Positions 3,243 through 58,311 of a stretch of 64,000 nt of DNA are shown piece by piece. The notes under the pieces were generated by a model. That model was not told the DNA's origin. It made no database searches and saw only the letters and a program-made list of their open reading frames with translations. Within the stretch, counting starts at the first letter, position 1. Each line of letters begins with the position of its first letter. The stretch spans positions 10,377 to 74,376 of IMG/VR virus record IMGVR_UViG_3300029908_000017; one strand, written 5' to 3'. This DNA comes from a virus. The position numbers and the translations under genes were made by a program.

Positions 3243-3784
3243 AGTGTTTTCGGATTTAAATCCTTATCTCTCATATATTCTGCAATAAATAAGCCATCAG
3301 CATCTTTTTTTAGTTTAGCTATTAAATGAGGGTACTTACGTATACCAATATCCAAACTAGCTTTTTTTAATTCTACACTGCCTTTTATACCTTTAGGTAG
3401 AAATCGATTTTGCCATTCTCCACTATCAATGAACTCATGACTTAATTTTAGCTGCTCTACGGCTATTAACTGCGCTTCATGGATTCTTGCTCCAATAATC
3501 ATTGCTTTCTTATGTTGAGGCAAATGAGAAGTAAAGGGTCGTTCAATACCTACACGGATATACGAGTGATTTTCATCCGTATATAAACTTGGTATCCAAC
3601 CTAGCATTAACTCTTTAAATTTTTTAACATCAAACCTCGAAATATAATTCTTTTTCTTGGTATACGATAGACATTTTTTTATAGGTGTAGAGGATGTATC
3701 TGAACGACCGTCATTCCAAATTATACCAACACCTGAACCTTTATTTACACCGTTGTCTAATCCAATGTATATTTTGTTTATCAT
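3239..3784 (-). CDS. RuvC-like Holliday junction resolvase
   Basis: N-terminal IYIGLDNG, VGIERP, a W-Q motif and C-terminal DADGLFIA match the RuvC/RNase H-fold acidic pattern. Confidence 0.8.
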   Translation of the reverse strand: MINKIYIGLDNGVNKGSGVGIIWNDGRSDTSSTPIKKCLSYTKKKNYISRFDVKKFKELMLGWIPSLYTDENHSYIRVGIERPFTSHLPQHKKAMIIGARIHEAQLIAVEQLKLSHEFIDSGEWQNRFLPKGIKGSVELKKASLDIGIRKYPHLIAKLKKDADGLFIAEYMRDKDLNPKTL

Positions 3785-9656: not shown

Positions 9657-11842
9657 GCAACGGCTACCTCTTGAATTTCTGGAATATTAGCAACTTCTTG
9701 TGCGATATCTTTTAATTCTTGATCAAGATTATCATTGATAACCGGTTCATTTGTATCTTCTACATCAACAGTTTCAAAATCCTGGTCAATAGGAGTTTCT
9801 TTGACATAATGCTTTAGGGTATAAATTTCGTCAACCAATACCGAGTCATTATGCAACGCATACAATCTAGCCGCGAGATCATCATAACCTACACCTGTAT
9901 CATGGCTTGAATTGACAATGCAAATATAACCCTGGCTAGCTTCGTCAAATACTTTGCAATTTTCTTTATTCACAATATAGGTTGTCAGCTTGCCTTTGAT
10001 ACGGTAAAACTCTTTACCATCTTTTTTGATCAACTCCGCGCCTGTAGCTTCTACAGCCATTTTTAAGAATTCTTTAGATTTCTCAACCGCTAATGCGTGC
10101 TTTAAGTCTAAATAATCAACAACCGCAATAAGATCAAAATCTGTCAAATGCTCGGTAACTACTTCTTTTTCGATTTCAACCCCATCAGCATTCTTTTCTT
10201 TAACAATCTTCTTAAAGGTAGACGCTTCTTTTAGAATTGGCTTTAATTTGCTTCTTGCCCATTTATCTGTTTTTGTCTCTCCGTTACACCAATTAGCATT
10301 TGCCGATTTATTTAAAGCATATACTTTTTTGATTAAATAATTTAATCTAACAGGTACTGTCTTCTCGATATTATCAATAGAGTTAATAACAAGATGTGGC
10401 TTTCTATCCACAATTCTAAAGAACAATTTAGTGCATTCAGGATGAGGTAAGGGATCTGCCCAACTACCAACATAATCCTTGTCAATTTTTACACCTAGTC
10501 CTGCACTAATTGCATCCGTGGCCTTTAAATTCAAGACTGAAGTTTGTTTAAGGAAATTTGTGTAATTCAACTCGTCTTGAAAACACGAACAACGATAAAT
10601 AACTTCTTCTAACTCATTGGCATTGATACGAATACCATTGATCTTACGATGACCGCTTGCCAAGTGCTTAGTCAACGTTAATGTAATTCCATTAATCTTG
10701 AACGACTCCAATGTAATTACACCATCCGTATACGCGGATTCGTCAGCAATTTCAAAAGTCTTAGGTACATTCACTTCTTCTTGGACCCTCGCGCTTCTCC
10801 TCCATCCATATCCGTACTTACGAATTTTCTTAATCTGCCGTACTTCTTTCTTTAATCCCGCACTCTCAAGTTCAGCCGCTTTGGCTTTCGCAATTTCACG
10901 GACAACTGAATAGATATCAAATTGATTATGAATATCATAAACACCCATAAATATTTCAAATAGCTTAGGATATTCGAGAGTAACAGTATGATAAACAGCC
11001 GAATTAGCTGTGAACTTAATATTGTTAAACTCACCAGATTCCACTTCACCAGACGCTAGTTTATTAGCATAGACTAATGTAGTATTAGCATTGTATTCTC
11101 CTTCAAGGACAGCTAACCGAGTTTTCCAAATAGTTTTCTGGTCTTTTGTCAGTCCCTTCTCCATCTTTAAGCGATACAATACACTCTTTTCAGGATTAAT
11201 AAAGAATCCATGATCCAACATATCTACGAATCTTGAATTAAATCGTAGAAGATGAAAAACTAATAGAATTTCATAAGTAAAAACATTTGCAACGGCGTAT
11301 TTACTAATCAATTTATTTTTCTCATGATACTGGTATACCTGAAAAAGATTATATTGATCGAGATAATCATATACTTTGTCCATGTGTGAGGCCATGAACT
11401 TGATAAACCTTCGACCATTTACAATACGATAAGTTGTACCATTTACAATTTTTTCGATAGGTGCCTGCATGATAACCAATGGCCCATCACTATCATCAAC
11501 AGATTGTCGAGTGTAATATTTTGAATTTGTGATCTTATCACGAATTGCTCCATAACTACTATCAGTTACTAACTCATAATTATCGTTGCAAAAAGAATCC
11601 TCAAAATCATTGTCAGGCCAATTTGAGGTACCGCGAATTGCTTGATAATTTAATTTAAACAACGAATGTAGCGTAGGTAAATTTTCTATATAAAAATCCT
11701 GTACTTTAAAATAGAAATTAATATCCTTGTTCTGTTCTTCCCAAGCCAATTCAAAATCTATTTTAACCTTCTTTAACTTTAATAATAGATTTTTTAATTT
11801 TACCAAATATTGTTTATTTAACTGCGAGTGATAAAATGCCAT
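9653..11842 (-). CDS. 729-aa protein of unknown function in the Ubl cassette
   Basis: Long ORF with a C-terminal RIKGKLTTYIV...YICIV...DDLAARLYALHND segment. Confidence 0.8.
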   Translation of the reverse strand: MAFYHSQLNKQYLVKLKNLLLKLKKVKIDFELAWEEQNKDINFYFKVQDFYIENLPTLHSLFKLNYQAIRGTSNWPDNDFEDSFCNDNYELVTDSSYGAIRDKITNSKYYTRQSVDDSDGPLVIMQAPIEKIVNGTTYRIVNGRRFIKFMASHMDKVYDYLDQYNLFQVYQYHEKNKLISKYAVANVFTYEILLVFHLLRFNSRFVDMLDHGFFINPEKSVLYRLKMEKGLTKDQKTIWKTRLAVLEGEYNANTTLVYANKLASGEVESGEFNNIKFTANSAVYHTVTLEYPKLFEIFMGVYDIHNQFDIYSVVREIAKAKAAELESAGLKKEVRQIKKIRKYGYGWRRSARVQEEVNVPKTFEIADESAYTDGVITLESFKINGITLTLTKHLASGHRKINGIRINANELEEVIYRCSCFQDELNYTNFLKQTSVLNLKATDAISAGLGVKIDKDYVGSWADPLPHPECTKLFFRIVDRKPHLVINSIDNIEKTVPVRLNYLIKKVYALNKSANANWCNGETKTDKWARSKLKPILKEASTFKKIVKEKNADGVEIEKEVVTEHLTDFDLIAVVDYLDLKHALAVEKSKEFLKMAVEATGAELIKKDGKEFYRIKGKLTTYIVNKENCKVFDEASQGYICIVNSSHDTGVGYDDLAARLYALHNDSVLVDEIYTLKHYVKETPIDQDFETVDVEDTNEPVINDNLDQELKDIAQEVANIPEIQEVAVA

Positions 11843-47069: not shown

Positions 47070-48371
47070 ATGTCTCTTAATCTAAATGATTTTAATACGA
47101 AAGTCAATCTCTCGAAAATCGTGGAAAAGGTTGCAGAACCAAATACATATTTCATAAAATCGGTTTTTCCATTTGGCGAATTTGCCTGTAACCATGACTT
47201 TAGTAACGTTTTTAATGTTTTCGATTTAATGGGTACGATTTATAACCCTGAACAACTATATACGCAGATCATCAATAATTGGCCTCAAGTATTGAGACAA
47301 CCGATTGTTTGGCGTGAGTATTCCAGAGATAAAATTCATAAAGAATGTATTCTTCAGCAGAGTTGGGCAAATATCGTCATGGAGGCTCAAAAAGAAATAA
47401 TTAATCATACTTACGTAATTCGTAAAGAAATAACTACAATTGCCAAACAATTTGAAGAAATGGGTTACTTTGGAGCAGTGATTAATGGAATGGGTCATAT
47501 ATCTCAAGATGTAATCAATAAACATTCTGAGATAGCGTGGAATAATACAATCATTAATAACTATCGTTATCCCGTTATTGTACCTTACTACCATACACCT
47601 AATAAAACGCATATATCATATATTGAAGTATTTGATGCGCTGGATTCTAAATTAACTCGAAAAAAGATATATGCCCCCAACTACCACGGGTTTACTGGAA
47701 AATTAACGAATGTCCTTCCTGACTTTACGGCCTTAATGCATCGAGAAGGATGTTTATGGGATTACACACTAGATTACTGGAACAACACTCCTTTACTAAT
47801 CGATAATGAATGTGGTATCGGTACATTACTAACTATTTTCAAAACCAATAAGACTACAAAATTTATTATTGACCCATTATCGATTATTAAAGAACGTAAT
47901 CTATCTTCACAAATTTACGAAAATCTACACATGCTTAGTCGAGAAGATATAACAATCATTCAAAATAAGTTGAATTTACAGGATATATATGACGATTGGT
48001 TAAAAATTCAGAATTATCAATATCTAGATGGAAGAACGATGTACTTCAAAAGTCCCGAAGGTTATTTTATGTCTAAATATGGAGAAGATAAGATTTATTT
48101 AACTAATTTTAGTCTAACTCGTAAAGGGCAAGAACTTCGAGAAGTGGGTAAACGTAAAATTGTGTTCTTTATTATCGAGGCTACTATGCATGATAAATCG
48201 ATTATATTAGAAGTACCTGAACATGTAATTAATTCCAAATCACGATTAAAATTATTTTTGATCAAGGAGTTTCATCGGCAGAATATGAATCCTCCTCGTT
48301 ATTACAAAAGAATAACGGCAAACTTATTGGAAAACTTTATTTTCGACTGGTTTGAGTGTCAAAATGCTTAA
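47070..48371 (+). CDS. Hypothetical protein
   Basis: 433-aa plus-strand ORF, divergent from 47030 across only 39 bp. Confidence 0.7.
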   Translation: MSLNLNDFNTKVNLSKIVEKVAEPNTYFIKSVFPFGEFACNHDFSNVFNVFDLMGTIYNPEQLYTQIINNWPQVLRQPIVWREYSRDKIHKECILQQSWANIVMEAQKEIINHTYVIRKEITTIAKQFEEMGYFGAVINGMGHISQDVINKHSEIAWNNTIINNYRYPVIVPYYHTPNKTHISYIEVFDALDSKLTRKKIYAPNYHGFTGKLTNVLPDFTALMHREGCLWDYTLDYWNNTPLLIDNECGIGTLLTIFKTNKTTKFIIDPLSIIKERNLSSQIYENLHMLSREDITIIQNKLNLQDIYDDWLKIQNYQYLDGRTMYFKSPEGYFMSKYGEDKIYLTNFSLTRKGQELREVGKRKIVFFIIEATMHDKSIILEVPEHVINSKSRLKLFLIKEFHRQNMNPPRYYKRITANLLENFIFDWFECQNA

Positions 48372-48573
48372 AGTATATCGGTTCGAACTCTTCATCCCAT
48401 TCAGCATATACCACATCATGAATGGTAATAACTAAAATATTGCCAACTTTATAAAGCACATATCTGCCTTTTGTAGTATCAGTAGAACTTACGAGTTCTA
48501 CTTCGGGTACTTTTAAATTCATGACCAACCGCTGTAACTGTTTATTTACTATATTTCGTTGTTTGATTTGCAT
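48337..48573 (-). CDS. Small hypothetical protein (start moved to MQIKQ)
   Basis: The start given in the track falls inside the terminator hairpin. Confidence 0.5.
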   Translation of the reverse strand: MQIKQRNIVNKQLQRLVMNLKVPEVELVSSTDTTKGRYVLYKVGNILVITIHDVVYAEWDEEFEPIYFKHFDTQTSRK

Positions 48574-48586
48574 ATTTTTATAAATT

Positions 48587-48629
48587 AAAAAACACACACT
48601 CGCCAAGGATCGAGAAGTCGAGTGTGTGT
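48587..48629 (-). terminator. Intrinsic terminator of the ncRNA
   Basis: ACACACACTCG-N16-CGAGTGTGTGT followed by a T-run on the minus strand. Confidence 0.8.
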
Positions 48630-48895
48630 AAAACTGAATATTCGTATCCGAATACCCATGTTTTAAGTTTACTTACAAAAGTGGTTCTCGTGTTGCATCA
48701 AGTCTACGCTCCGTTAACACACGGTCTACTTGATGCAGAAGGTCTATACGACCATCACGAGGCGCAATAGAGTCCAGGAATATTGCGCTAAACTCTCTTA
48801 CCTGAGAGAACAGGTTTTGTTTATCGAGGTAACGATAAGGTTGTAACTGTTTTTTTATTGTAACGATTCAGGACAGATAATCCCTCTTCGTTACA
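48587..48895 (-). ncRNA. Predicted ~305-nt structured non-coding RNA
   Basis: No meaningful ORF. It is bounded by promoter P2 and an intrinsic terminator and has about ten helices plus two complementary 6-nt loops. Confidence 0.8.
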
Positions 48896-48898
48896 TAT

Positions 48899-48936
48899 TA
48901 CTATACCAAATTATATCCGAATATTCGGAGGGGGGT
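48899..48936 (-). promoter_or_regulatory. Phage promoter motif P2
   Basis: ACCCCC-N23-GGTATAGTA. Confidence 0.8.
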
Positions 48937-48945
48937 GGGGTGAGC

Positions 48946-49937
48946 TTAAATATAAGGTATCACTTGAAAATCCGTATCCGCGTTAGAAGTAGTGGATACA
49001 AATGGAGGCCAAGAGGGTTTCAATGTTCCACGATTTAATCCTCCTTGTAGCGATTCAGGATTAGGACTAAACGCAGCATACTGAAAATCAAAATATGTTT
49101 TACCAACTAATAAAGTCCTGGGCTTAATATCGTTTAGTTGACTGACTCGCTCAACCGCCCAAATATCCAGTTCAAAACTTCCTGCAATCAAACAATCCGT
49201 ACTGGCATTGGGAATGAATACAACAAAATGATTAGGTACTTTATCATCTATGTAAATACCATTACCCAGACTTCCTTGCCACACAACTACAAGGTTATAA
49301 ACATTCGATTTTACAATCGCTTGTAGATTATATCTCTTAACGTCAATACTTTGAGTATTAATGAATAAAAATGTATCAAAAATAATGTCTTCTCCCTGAT
49401 AAAATACACCTGTCGATAAATCGCTACCTATATAGTTTGTTCCGGGTATCCCTGCTGTATTAATAGGATTTGGAGAAGGGGATGTATTATTGACTCGGGG
49501 AATAAACGTAGTTTTATTATATTGCAAACTACCTGCGTAATTATTTAAATTTATTGGAACAGATATATTTTGCGTACTAGCCTGACTTGGTTCAAAATTA
49601 GTTGGTTGATTTAAAGGTACAATTATAGACATACTTGAATAAGTTTTTTGGTAACTTGATCTTGTCTATAATAACATATCTGTTCAACATTCAACATACT
49701 TTTCATTGTCAAAAAATCCTGGTCGGTCATTGATGTCAAGGCTGTCTCCAATTGTGGACGTATTTGAGCATAGGGATTTGTTTTTCCTCCACAAGACGAA
49801 CAACCCGTTTTCGGTTGAGTATTTAAATGATTAATTAATGTACTCAACCGACTGAATGCTGGAATGGTCAGTAAACTTGGATTGTTATTCAACAGATGAC
49901 TAAGCTGAGAAGCGGAAGTGATAGATAACTTGCTCAT
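48946..49937 (-). CDS. Two hypothetical, probably virion-associated genes (48946-49632 beta-rich; 49623-49937 with GCSSCG)
   Basis: Overlapping ORFs with composition like the structural block. Confidence 0.55.
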
Positions 49938-49961
49938 CCTTCCAATATACTGATTAATAAC

Positions 49962-50040
49962 TAAAAAACAAATGAGAATATCTCAAATGTTTCCGAGACA
50001 GGGGAATTTACCCCTGTCTCTATATTTCGCTTGCGCGAAA
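49962..50040 (-). terminator. 3' hairpin cluster/terminator of cassette P3
   Basis: Perfect 10-bp stem GAGACAGGGG-N6-CCCCTGTCTC, two small hairpins and a T-run. Confidence 0.6.
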
Positions 50041-50388
50041 TTACCGGCTCTTGGAAAGAACCGCAGTTGCCTGCTCTTCTTCCACTTCAGCTTCGGTGGG
50101 TACCTGAATTTCCTCAACAATGACCGGAACTTCCGGAATATTGTCATGGACCTTTTGTACTGTGTTCTTGACCTTCTTCACACCCAGTCCAACAAAGCCA
50201 AGCATGCGAGTCTTGACGCTGGTGGCCTTGGCTTTGACGAGTGGCCAATAAGCCACGCTAAAGCCTCCAATAACTGCTCCAGCTGCCGCTGATGCTGCTA
50301 CAACAGTAGCCACACCAGTTTTGGTCAGAACAATGTTAGTCGAGGGGGTGTTGACATTGATCGTCAATGTATCGGTAGGGGTTTCCAT
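50041..50388 (-). CDS. Hypothetical protein with an Ala/Gly/Val-rich hydrophobic segment
   Basis: Has its own promoter P3, an AAGGATCA leader and a terminator. Confidence 0.7.
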   Translation of the reverse strand: METPTDTLTINVNTPSTNIVLTKTGVATVVAASAAAGAVIGGFSVAYWPLVKAKATSVKTRMLGFVGLGVKKVKNTVQKVHDNIPEVPVIVEEIQVPTEAEVEEEQATAVLSKSR

Positions 50389-50458
50389 ATAATGATCCTT
50401 TCGTTATTTTTGTTTACAAGAATTCACCTCACAAGAGATAAACCCTTCTTTGATATAC

Positions 50459-50496
50459 TACTATACCAATATACCCTCTATTCACCCAAGGGGGGT
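50459..50496 (-). promoter_or_regulatory. Phage promoter motif P3
   Basis: ACCCCC-N23-GGTATAGTA; nearly identical to P5. Confidence 0.8.
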
Positions 50497-51489: not shown

Positions 51490-51530
51490 ATTTGATCCTT
51501 GTTCTTGAGAACATAAGTATTCCCATTACT

Positions 51531-51568
51531 TATTATACCGATAAATACCCAATACACCTAAGGGGGGT
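51531..51568 (-). promoter_or_regulatory. Phage promoter motif P4
   Basis: ACCCCC-N23-GGTATAATA (canonical TATAAT). Confidence 0.8.
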
Positions 51569-58249: not shown

Positions 58250-58273
58250 AATGATCCTTTGGTTAAGTTATAC

Positions 58274-58311
58274 TACTATACCAAGATACCCTCTATCCAT
58301 CCAAGGGGGGT
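58274..58311 (-). promoter_or_regulatory. Phage promoter motif P5
   Basis: ACCCCC-N23-GGTATAGTA. Confidence 0.8.

Follow-up and report, generated by a model that had tools for sequence, protein, structure and literature searches.

What does a phage keep at a place in its genome where its relatives keep the gene for transfer-messenger RNA (tmRNA)? The question is raised by a stretch of 64,000 nucleotides (the window, in what follows), positions 10,377 to 74,376 of the IMG/VR virus record IMGVR_UViG_3300029908_000017, a record of 74 kb with an estimated completeness of 36%. There, between positions 48587 and 48895, a sequence-only reading had seen on the minus strand a tertiary-folded noncoding RNA (ncRNA) with a pair of kissing loops. 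A discrete, strongly structured, non-coding unit outside the described families is indeed what the fold, the transcription signals and the absence of any Rfam match point to, and it can be put forward as a credible candidate for a structured phage RNA not described before. The reading that we prefer is that of a stand-alone gene for a stable, structured ncRNA of about 300 nt, to which we give a probability of roughly 0.55. It gains weight because the unit fills a slot that holds stable RNAs in the relatives, and of all that the analysis adds, the most interesting point is that tmRNA is replaced at so conserved a place.

The unit has a promoter and a terminator of its own, as had been proposed, and runs on the minus strand from about 48894 to 48587 (Table 1). 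Its promoter, P2, stands right after the stop codon of a conserved 228-aa gene (48946). The module recurs elsewhere in the window, so that P2 belongs to a repeated family of phage promoters and is no isolated consensus match. Five members are found, all on the minus strand (2078-2087, 48899-48908, 50459-50468, 51531-51540 and 58274-58283), built from a CCCC[A/T]CCCCCCT box, a spacer of some 20-25 nt, then the 10-mer TGGTATAGTA. This 10-mer is exact at four of the sites, with CGGTATAATA in its stead at 51531, and the C-rich box comes in shorter versions at 2078 and 51531. P2, P3 and P5 have about 35 conserved positions in common, each starting right after TTTAA. The other four promoters drive protein cassettes, behind short leaders of roughly 20-65 nt. 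A pattern scan of IMG/VR for the promoter module returned no match. The likely start of transcription, 6-8 nt downstream of the -10 element, falls at about 48892-48894, which may remove the first pair of the outermost helix (48859-66/48888-95). The palindrome CCGAATATTCGG in the spacer, unique to P2, may be an operator; a half-site related to it lies within the 3' hairpin of the RNA.

At the other end, the T run of the terminator occupies 48587-48592, and a hairpin with a U tail is formed on the minus strand only; a simple terminator scan missed it because its 16-nt loop is large. The GAUCCUU of this loop (AAGGATC as complement, 48605-48611) is exactly complementary to AAGGAUC at 50394-50400, 51494-51500 and 58253-58259. 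In the P3, P4 and P5 cassettes this motif precedes the start codon of the leading gene by 2-4 nt (by 8 nt in P4). When the RNA was paired with the leaders of the P1, P3, P4 and P5 cassettes, whole-duplex energies did not surpass those of shuffled sequences (fractions 0.075-0.43); GAUCCUU and AAGGAUC might possibly meet as a seed contact only.

The ten helices put forward for the RNA were checked for complementarity and for their pair probabilities in the Boltzmann ensemble. All are perfectly Watson-Crick, and nine of them hold at probabilities of 0.57-1.0; the tenth, a long-range pairing of A and U (48675-80/48815-20), comes out at 0.04 and has to be dropped. The hairpin that had been expected to compete with one of the loops, ACCUG/CAGGU, is present in the ensemble. 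On the minus strand the minimum free energy (MFE) reaches -104.2 kcal/mol, which corresponds to a z of -6.13 relative to dinucleotide shuffles, and the core alone (48655-48840, without the 5' hairpin and the terminator) has a z of -4.07. Corrected for GC content, the fold ranks 6th among some 1280 segments of a 300-nt grid laid over both strands of the whole window, and the region taken at its exact bounds would rank near the top of the grid. Beyond its 10 bp, the long arm of the three-way junction continues through an internal loop rich in purines to a tip of 4 bp. The 5' hairpin would be a generic leader module, external to the core, judging from its inner sequence, which is like that of the leader of the P3 cassette (50459).

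Table 1. Features of the locus, in coordinates of the window; figures for pairs are probabilities in the Boltzmann ensemble.
Feature	Position	Strand	Remarks
5'-terminal hairpin	48859..48895	-	8-bp outer stem, inner stem with two G-U; pairs 0.81-1.0
Hairpin with hexaloop UUACCU (48827-48832)	48821..48838	-	6-bp stem; pairs 0.78-1.0; loop fully unpaired
Hairpin with hexaloop AGGUAA (48798-48803)	48793..48808	-	5-bp stem; pairs 0.57-0.59
8-bp hairpin with 11-nt loop (UUCCUGGACUC)	48762..48788	-	pairs 0.84-0.91
Three-way junction	48687..48761	-	6-bp closing helix, 4-bp hairpin, 10-bp arm; pairs 0.59-1.0
3' hairpin	48630..48665	-	holds a 6-bp helix of the sequence-only reading; about 16 pairs in the MFE structure, two G-U
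Intrinsic terminator	48587..48629	-	11-bp stem 48619-48629/48592-48602, 16-nt loop with GAUCCUU, then six U
C-rich upstream promoter box (CCCCACCCCCCT)	48929..48940	-	common to the phage's promoter family; at 50459 and 58274 it precedes TGGTATAGTA by 20-25 nt
Perfect 12-nt palindrome CCGAATATTCGG	48917..48928	.	in the promoter spacer; spacers of other family members unrelated
Extended -10 TGGTATAGT	48900..48908	-	second TATAAT at 48910-48915
orf78, 78-aa gene	48337..48573	-	ATG at 48573, 13 nt past the T run of the terminator
Conserved 228-aa gene of the structural block	48946..49632	-	upstream flank; homologues found
Conserved convergent 433-aa gene	47070..48371	+	downstream flank; 24% identity to the convergent gene after the relatives' tmRNA

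Two short words recur in the RNA at about ten times expectation each, UAGAC three times in the junction domain and GTTAC three times in the first 70 nt. Furthermore, positions 48858-48873 of the 5' hairpin (TCCTGAATCGTTACAA) are identical at 15 of 16 places to 49045-49060, which encodes a conserved PESLQ of the 228-aa gene; this likeness is due either to chance (some 0.03 such cases are expected per region) or to a trace of the origin of the cassette.

Two of the hairpins carry loops, UUACCU and AGGUAA, which are complementary over six of their six nucleotides, just as had been claimed. The former is always free; the latter is unpaired in only about 65% of the ensemble because the ACCUG/CAGGU hairpin competes for it. 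A Watson-Crick match of at least 6 nt between any two of the nine hairpin loops occurs in 1.2% of shuffles of the loop letters, and between neighbouring loops in 0.14% of them: it is unlikely that the complementarity arose by chance. The linker between the two hairpins, 12 nt, should be long enough for a contact within the molecule, and our own nearest-neighbour stacking estimate puts the energy of such a contact near -10 kcal/mol. The two hexaloops may kiss, within one molecule or head-to-tail between molecules.

The neighbourhood of the unit tells us what this place in the genome is otherwise used for. Closer homologues of the 228-aa protein (46-60% identity) are met only on short Logan or JGI contigs; distant ones (29-37% identity) are present at 17 loci from lake and other metagenomes, and these relatives include records of 128-204 kb (one of them complete, at 204 kb) and one contig binned with a metagenome-assembled genome (MAG) of Saprospiraceae. 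At every locus that reaches far enough (L002-L007, L011-L016, L018, L019) a tmRNA gene lies downstream of the 228-aa homologue, with scores of 116-156 bits when complete and of 47-59 bits where the end of a contig cuts the copy. It comes directly after the gene, after one or two small open reading frames (ORFs), or about 2.6 kb further on (in the MAG contig), and it is often adjoined by plain transfer RNAs (tRNAs) or by a tRNA with a group I intron. Promoters of the TGGTATAAT type precede these tmRNA genes. On the far side, the convergent 433-aa gene of the window is homologous to a convergent gene of 440-441 aa that stands beyond the RNA genes of the relatives (E 3e-27 in L002, E 7e-24 in L012). 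In L014, where the layout is the same, a gap of 575 nt contains a promoter and tmRNA only; the gap of the window is likewise 575 nt long. Both flanks being homologous to those which surround the tmRNA of the relatives, the RNA, together with a small gene that follows it, orf78, stands in the exact place of tmRNA.

Several details of this slot deserve mention for themselves. The relatives make up a lineage of large uncultivated phages (128-204 kb), most of them from lake metagenomes; their tmRNA behind the structural-block gene, often with tRNAs after it, was recorded in L002 (693-1129 and 1146-1355) as well as in L003, L004, L006, L011-L016, L018 and L019. The split tRNA of the relatives has a compact group I intron, of about 210 nt. 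ARAGORN called two tag peptides from their tmRNAs, one ending in ...AILAA (31 aa, unusually long), the other AASLLAGQDLG (11 aa). In two of them, between the gene and tmRNA (L002, about 557-690; L011, about 3590-3730), we see a small conserved cassette that goes from a promoter to a hairpin with a T run. In its 11-bp stem the two copies differ by a compensatory change (U-A to C-G) and by a wobble change. The cassette may make a small RNA, or else serve for processing or termination before the tmRNA gene. A tRNA-Met gene directly follows tmRNA in some relatives. The only tRNA gene of the record studied here is also a tRNA-Met (CAT), found outside the window (G000:C1:1873-1944, L026) between protein genes, some 57 kb from the RNA slot. 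Finally, the tmRNA-bearing relative binned in an uncultured Saprospiraceae MAG (L019, CAZFBN010000012.1, 58,995 nt) gives a hint, no more, that this phage lineage infects Bacteroidota.

A position so clearly homologous asks whether the RNA might be a tmRNA that has diverged very far, or what is left of the cluster of tmRNA and intron-bearing tRNA of the relatives. Apart from position, such a reading can draw on a cloverleaf, a poor one, that ARAGORN proposes for 48590-48664 once its threshold is lowered to 80%. Yet in 901 nt that include the RNA there is no match at E<=10 to tmRNA, permuted tmRNA, tRNA or group I intron, no tmRNA is seen in the whole record, and a profile made of the clade's own tmRNAs (nhmmer, filters off) finds nothing at E<=100. 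The conserved ends of those tmRNAs (5' GGGCCCGUACUGGUUUCGA, 3' GGGGUUCAACUCCCC...CCACCA) are absent; the 5' end of the candidate closes on itself, not with its 3' end, and neither a T-loop nor a CCA is present. Its sole open frame, of 64 codons, ends in ...EPLL, which is not the hydrophobic tail of the ...AA type expected from a tag. The calls of tRNA-Cys or tmRNA made by ARAGORN when relaxed are artefacts: they reuse the terminator, contain mismatches in the acceptor and no T-loop consensus, and are gone at a 90% threshold. At default settings the program calls no tRNA or tmRNA in the candidate. Descent from tmRNA is therefore largely refuted, and we hold it to be barely credible.

The sequence-only reading had gone further, in recognizing neither tRNA, tmRNA, 6S, RNase P, SRP nor hammerhead, and this is borne out, since none of the 4227 families of Rfam matches: the whole window, searched with Rfam 15, gives no match that reaches a gathering threshold, and for the same 901 nt the limit of E<=10 adds nothing relevant. 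A search among 50,697 phage records by megablast and blastn gave no homologue, the matches at E<=10 being four in number, 34-46 nt long and due to chance. With the two neighbouring proteins as queries, tblastn was blank in these records, and no nucleotide or protein relative of the window is found among these deposited genomes. Blastn of the RNA against the whole records of the relatives (all but three) was blank too. A covariance model of positions 48687-48838, with 43 pairs, matched nothing in the genomes of five relatives, in 14+5 loci, in the rest of the window, in the Saprospiraceae MAG or in 151 Saprospiraceae genomes. Pattern scans of IMG/VR, for the kissing loops with their closing pairs and for the hairpin with the 11-nt loop, produced nothing or chance matches; five IMG/VR matches to the internal loop of the junction arm were likewise shown to be due to chance.

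Does the interval code for a protein? It had been said to hold no ORF starting with ATG. This stands, and extends to GTG and TTG; a stop-free frame of 64 codons (48867-48676) exists nevertheless, and might be read from a non-canonical start (ATC, ATA or CTG) into a small protein of at most 64 aa. Its codon usage scores mildly positive, +8.4, to be compared with 19.6 +/- 5.7 for real genes; this is the level of chance, as 34% of equally long open frames taken from the wrong frames of real genes score as high. Pfam returns nothing for the peptide, 5.8 billion protein clusters include no homologue of it, the source data have no gene called at this place, and the frame crosses eight perfect helices. 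Coding by the interval is unlikely, and this particular small protein very improbable.

A true protein gene, which the sequence-only reading missed, begins just after the terminator. The reality of orf78 is supported by nine homologues of the same length (76-81 aa, 37-51% identity in the alignment, end-to-end) and by a confidently predicted fold (predicted local distance difference test, pLDDT, of 91) in which a helix, a four-stranded sheet and a second helix follow one another. The family makes at least nine clusters at 50% identity, all of them metagenomic. Foldseek returned no match to this fold in the PDB at E<=0.001 (among weak rows of low template-modelling, TM, score are double-stranded RNA-binding domains), the best hit of a wide structure search had a Z of 4.2, and the Atlas contained no usable match; these searches allow no claim of a link between orf78 and RNA binding. 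The gene was not found in the genomes of five tmRNA-bearing relatives, and searches for loci based on it in IMG/VR and GTDB genomes were blank. One of its homologues (P0010) and the closest homologue of the 228-aa protein (P0002) are each carried by a Logan contig of 3205 nt, probably the same one, which suggests that the association of the RNA with orf78 is probably common to closer relatives.

The gene has no room for a promoter of its own. Its transcription must therefore pass the terminator, having begun at P2 or in the upstream operon. The RNA might then act on orf78 in cis, as a structured 5' leader or attenuator: most transcripts from P2 would stop at the terminator, and a regulated read-through would express the gene. 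We judge this unlikely, though deserving of serious attention. In its favour, besides the reality of the gene, its start so soon after the T run and the want of promoter space, is a near-repeat (18 of 21 nt identical, with AAACAGTTACA as its core) between the RNA at 48842-48862 and codons 7-14 of orf78 (48533-48553). The two copies of this 21-nt stretch are direct repeats 309 nt apart, that of the RNA being located in an A-rich linker. An attenuator, however, calls for an antiterminator, and none is apparent: nothing in the growing transcript competes for the 5' arm of the terminator (ddG -2.2 kcal/mol). When the transcript is cut before the 3' arm, the stretch of A/C repeats in the 5' arm, 8 of its 11 nt, is paired at a probability of 0.12 or less, and to free the whole arm takes no more than 2.2 kcal/mol. 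Furthermore, neither riboswitches, T-boxes nor leader families give a match, the leaders behind the other promoters of the family are short, at about 20-65 nt, orf78 could as well be read from the upstream late operon via a leaky terminator, and the slot is occupied in the relatives by free-standing RNA genes.

Several considerations weigh against a stand-alone RNA gene, and they are best gathered here. The whole case is built on one sequence, with a homologue in none of the collections searched. Thermodynamic prediction alone often over-calls structure. The 43 pairs of the core are all Watson-Crick (G-U pairs make up 5 of the 98 pairs of the MFE structure, none of them in the core), so that the core is symmetrical with respect to the strands and would also fit inverted repeats at the DNA level; the assignment to the minus strand comes from the promoter, the terminator and the flanking hairpins, the core having no strand signal. 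The sequence is present in 24 sequencing runs, 23 of them from peat metagenomes, and no RNA run is among those that hold it. Four of the peat runs, compared at 80% likeness, gave fragmentary contigs that were all identical, so that these four contribute no natural variants for covariation. And orf78, with its start 13 nt past the terminator, keeps the cis-leader reading alive.

These facts invite the thought that the interval has no RNA function at all, and is decayed or filler DNA left after the loss of tmRNA, or a set of DNA-level palindromes (sites for proteins, terminators) that happen to fold well in silico. The symmetry of the core and the orphan status of the element agree with it, and so does the fact that the plus strand also folds well (-95 kcal/mol, z -4.6). 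A further argument is found at 49801-50200, which on both strands is the strongest-folding stretch of the window, stronger than the RNA, merely because it contains two or three tandem terminator hairpins (about 49985-50040) after the gene of the P3 cassette, and an 18-nt inverted repeat (49811-49851) inside an ORF (49623-49937). Against this stand an intact promoter of the family and a strong terminator that works in one direction, as well as the advantage of about 9 kcal/mol of the minus strand over the plus strand. DNA palindromes do not explain why two neighbouring loops are complementary over their whole length (p ~0.001), and phage genomes rarely retain 300 nt of filler under a strong promoter. 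All considered, we find the absence of any RNA function quite improbable.

Returning to the stand-alone RNA gene, we may sketch how it would work. P2, from the phage's own promoter family, would drive the RNA, the intrinsic terminator would end it, and a discrete, stable molecule of about 300 nt would be made, its 5' hairpin serving as a generic protective leader. The tmRNA of the lineage would have been replaced here by an unrelated RNA and the small gene orf78. The kiss of the loops would shift the ACCUG/CAGGU alternative toward the state that presents the loop, and compact the RNA; alternatively, the loops would link molecules head-to-tail, in the way of the loops of the packaging RNA (pRNA) of phage phi29. 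By analogy with the large phage RNAs ROOL and GOLLD, we would picture it neither as an antisense nor as a coding RNA, but as a folded particle with a binding partner. The evidence gathered here lends no support to the particular roles offered by the sequence-only reading (ribozyme, packaging scaffold, anti-defence decoy), nor to any tertiary or multimeric fold. To go further and hold that a new class of RNA took the slot of tmRNA, with loops linking molecules into rings or filaments, or with a role in the translation apparatus played without a tRNA-like domain, is a speculation drawn from such analogies, and a doubtful one.

If the preferred reading is true, a new family joins the few ornate RNAs of phages, ROOL, GOLLD and others, that live among stable-RNA genes. 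One and the same slot, with tmRNA in one branch of the lineage and an RNA plus a small protein in another, would also make an unusually clean natural experiment, and comparing the branches could reveal what a phage gains from tmRNA and what might be substituted for it. With its 300 nt and a single simple predicted tertiary contact, the RNA would be an easy structural target. A prediction from one sequence has its value, at present, as that of a well-defined candidate, not of a discovery.

How does the candidate compare with known systems? Like leaders that depend on a terminator, it is long and structured, with a terminator immediately before a co-directional gene; unlike them it has no antiterminator and no match to a known aptamer or leader family. 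With tmRNA (SsrA, RF00023) it has in common the slot between the same two flanks and the type of promoter (TGGTATAAT or TGGTATAGT), and its size class is similar, 300 nt as compared with 400-470 nt in the relatives. It differs from tmRNA in that a tRNA-like domain, a CCA end and a tag frame with its resume codon are all missing, neither sequence nor model shows any similarity, and its 5' and 3' ends do not pair.

The pRNA of phi29 (RF00044) resembles the candidate in architecture. It, too, has a three-way junction and two loops which are not self-complementary and are complementary to each other, over 6 of 6 nt in our candidate. The complementary loops of pRNA join molecules head-to-tail into a ring. 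The candidate does not match the pRNA model, however, and its complementary loops are carried by two adjacent hairpins that are not part of the junction; nothing seen here links it to a packaging motor, and its phage is large (74 kb at about 36% completeness, with relatives of 128-204 kb), not a podovirus of the phi29 kind.

Lastly, ROOL (RF03087) and GOLLD (RF01998), studied by cryo-EM, come from phages and prophages, where they lie 'often near tRNA islands'; kissing loops hold them together, and their function is unknown (PMC12286853). Here the differences are of family and of size: the candidate matches neither covariance model, has no known family members, gives no evidence of forming oligomers, and measures about 300 nt as against about 580 and more than 800 nt. 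Cages and filaments are formed even by RNAs of less than 200 nt (bioRxiv 10.64898/2026.07.01.735769). Of the homo-oligomeric assembly by kissing loops and A-minor contacts that marks ROOL and GOLLD, the candidate shows the complementarity of its two loops, and kissing contacts are a prominent part of its predicted structure. As to the tRNA islands, the slot of the candidate holds tmRNA and tRNAs in the relatives, the tRNA of its own phage being far away. Ornate phage RNAs that live among stable-RNA genes thus have precedents in these two families, and the candidate resembles them in being phage-borne, non-coding and richly structured, in a place that its relatives reserve for stable RNAs.

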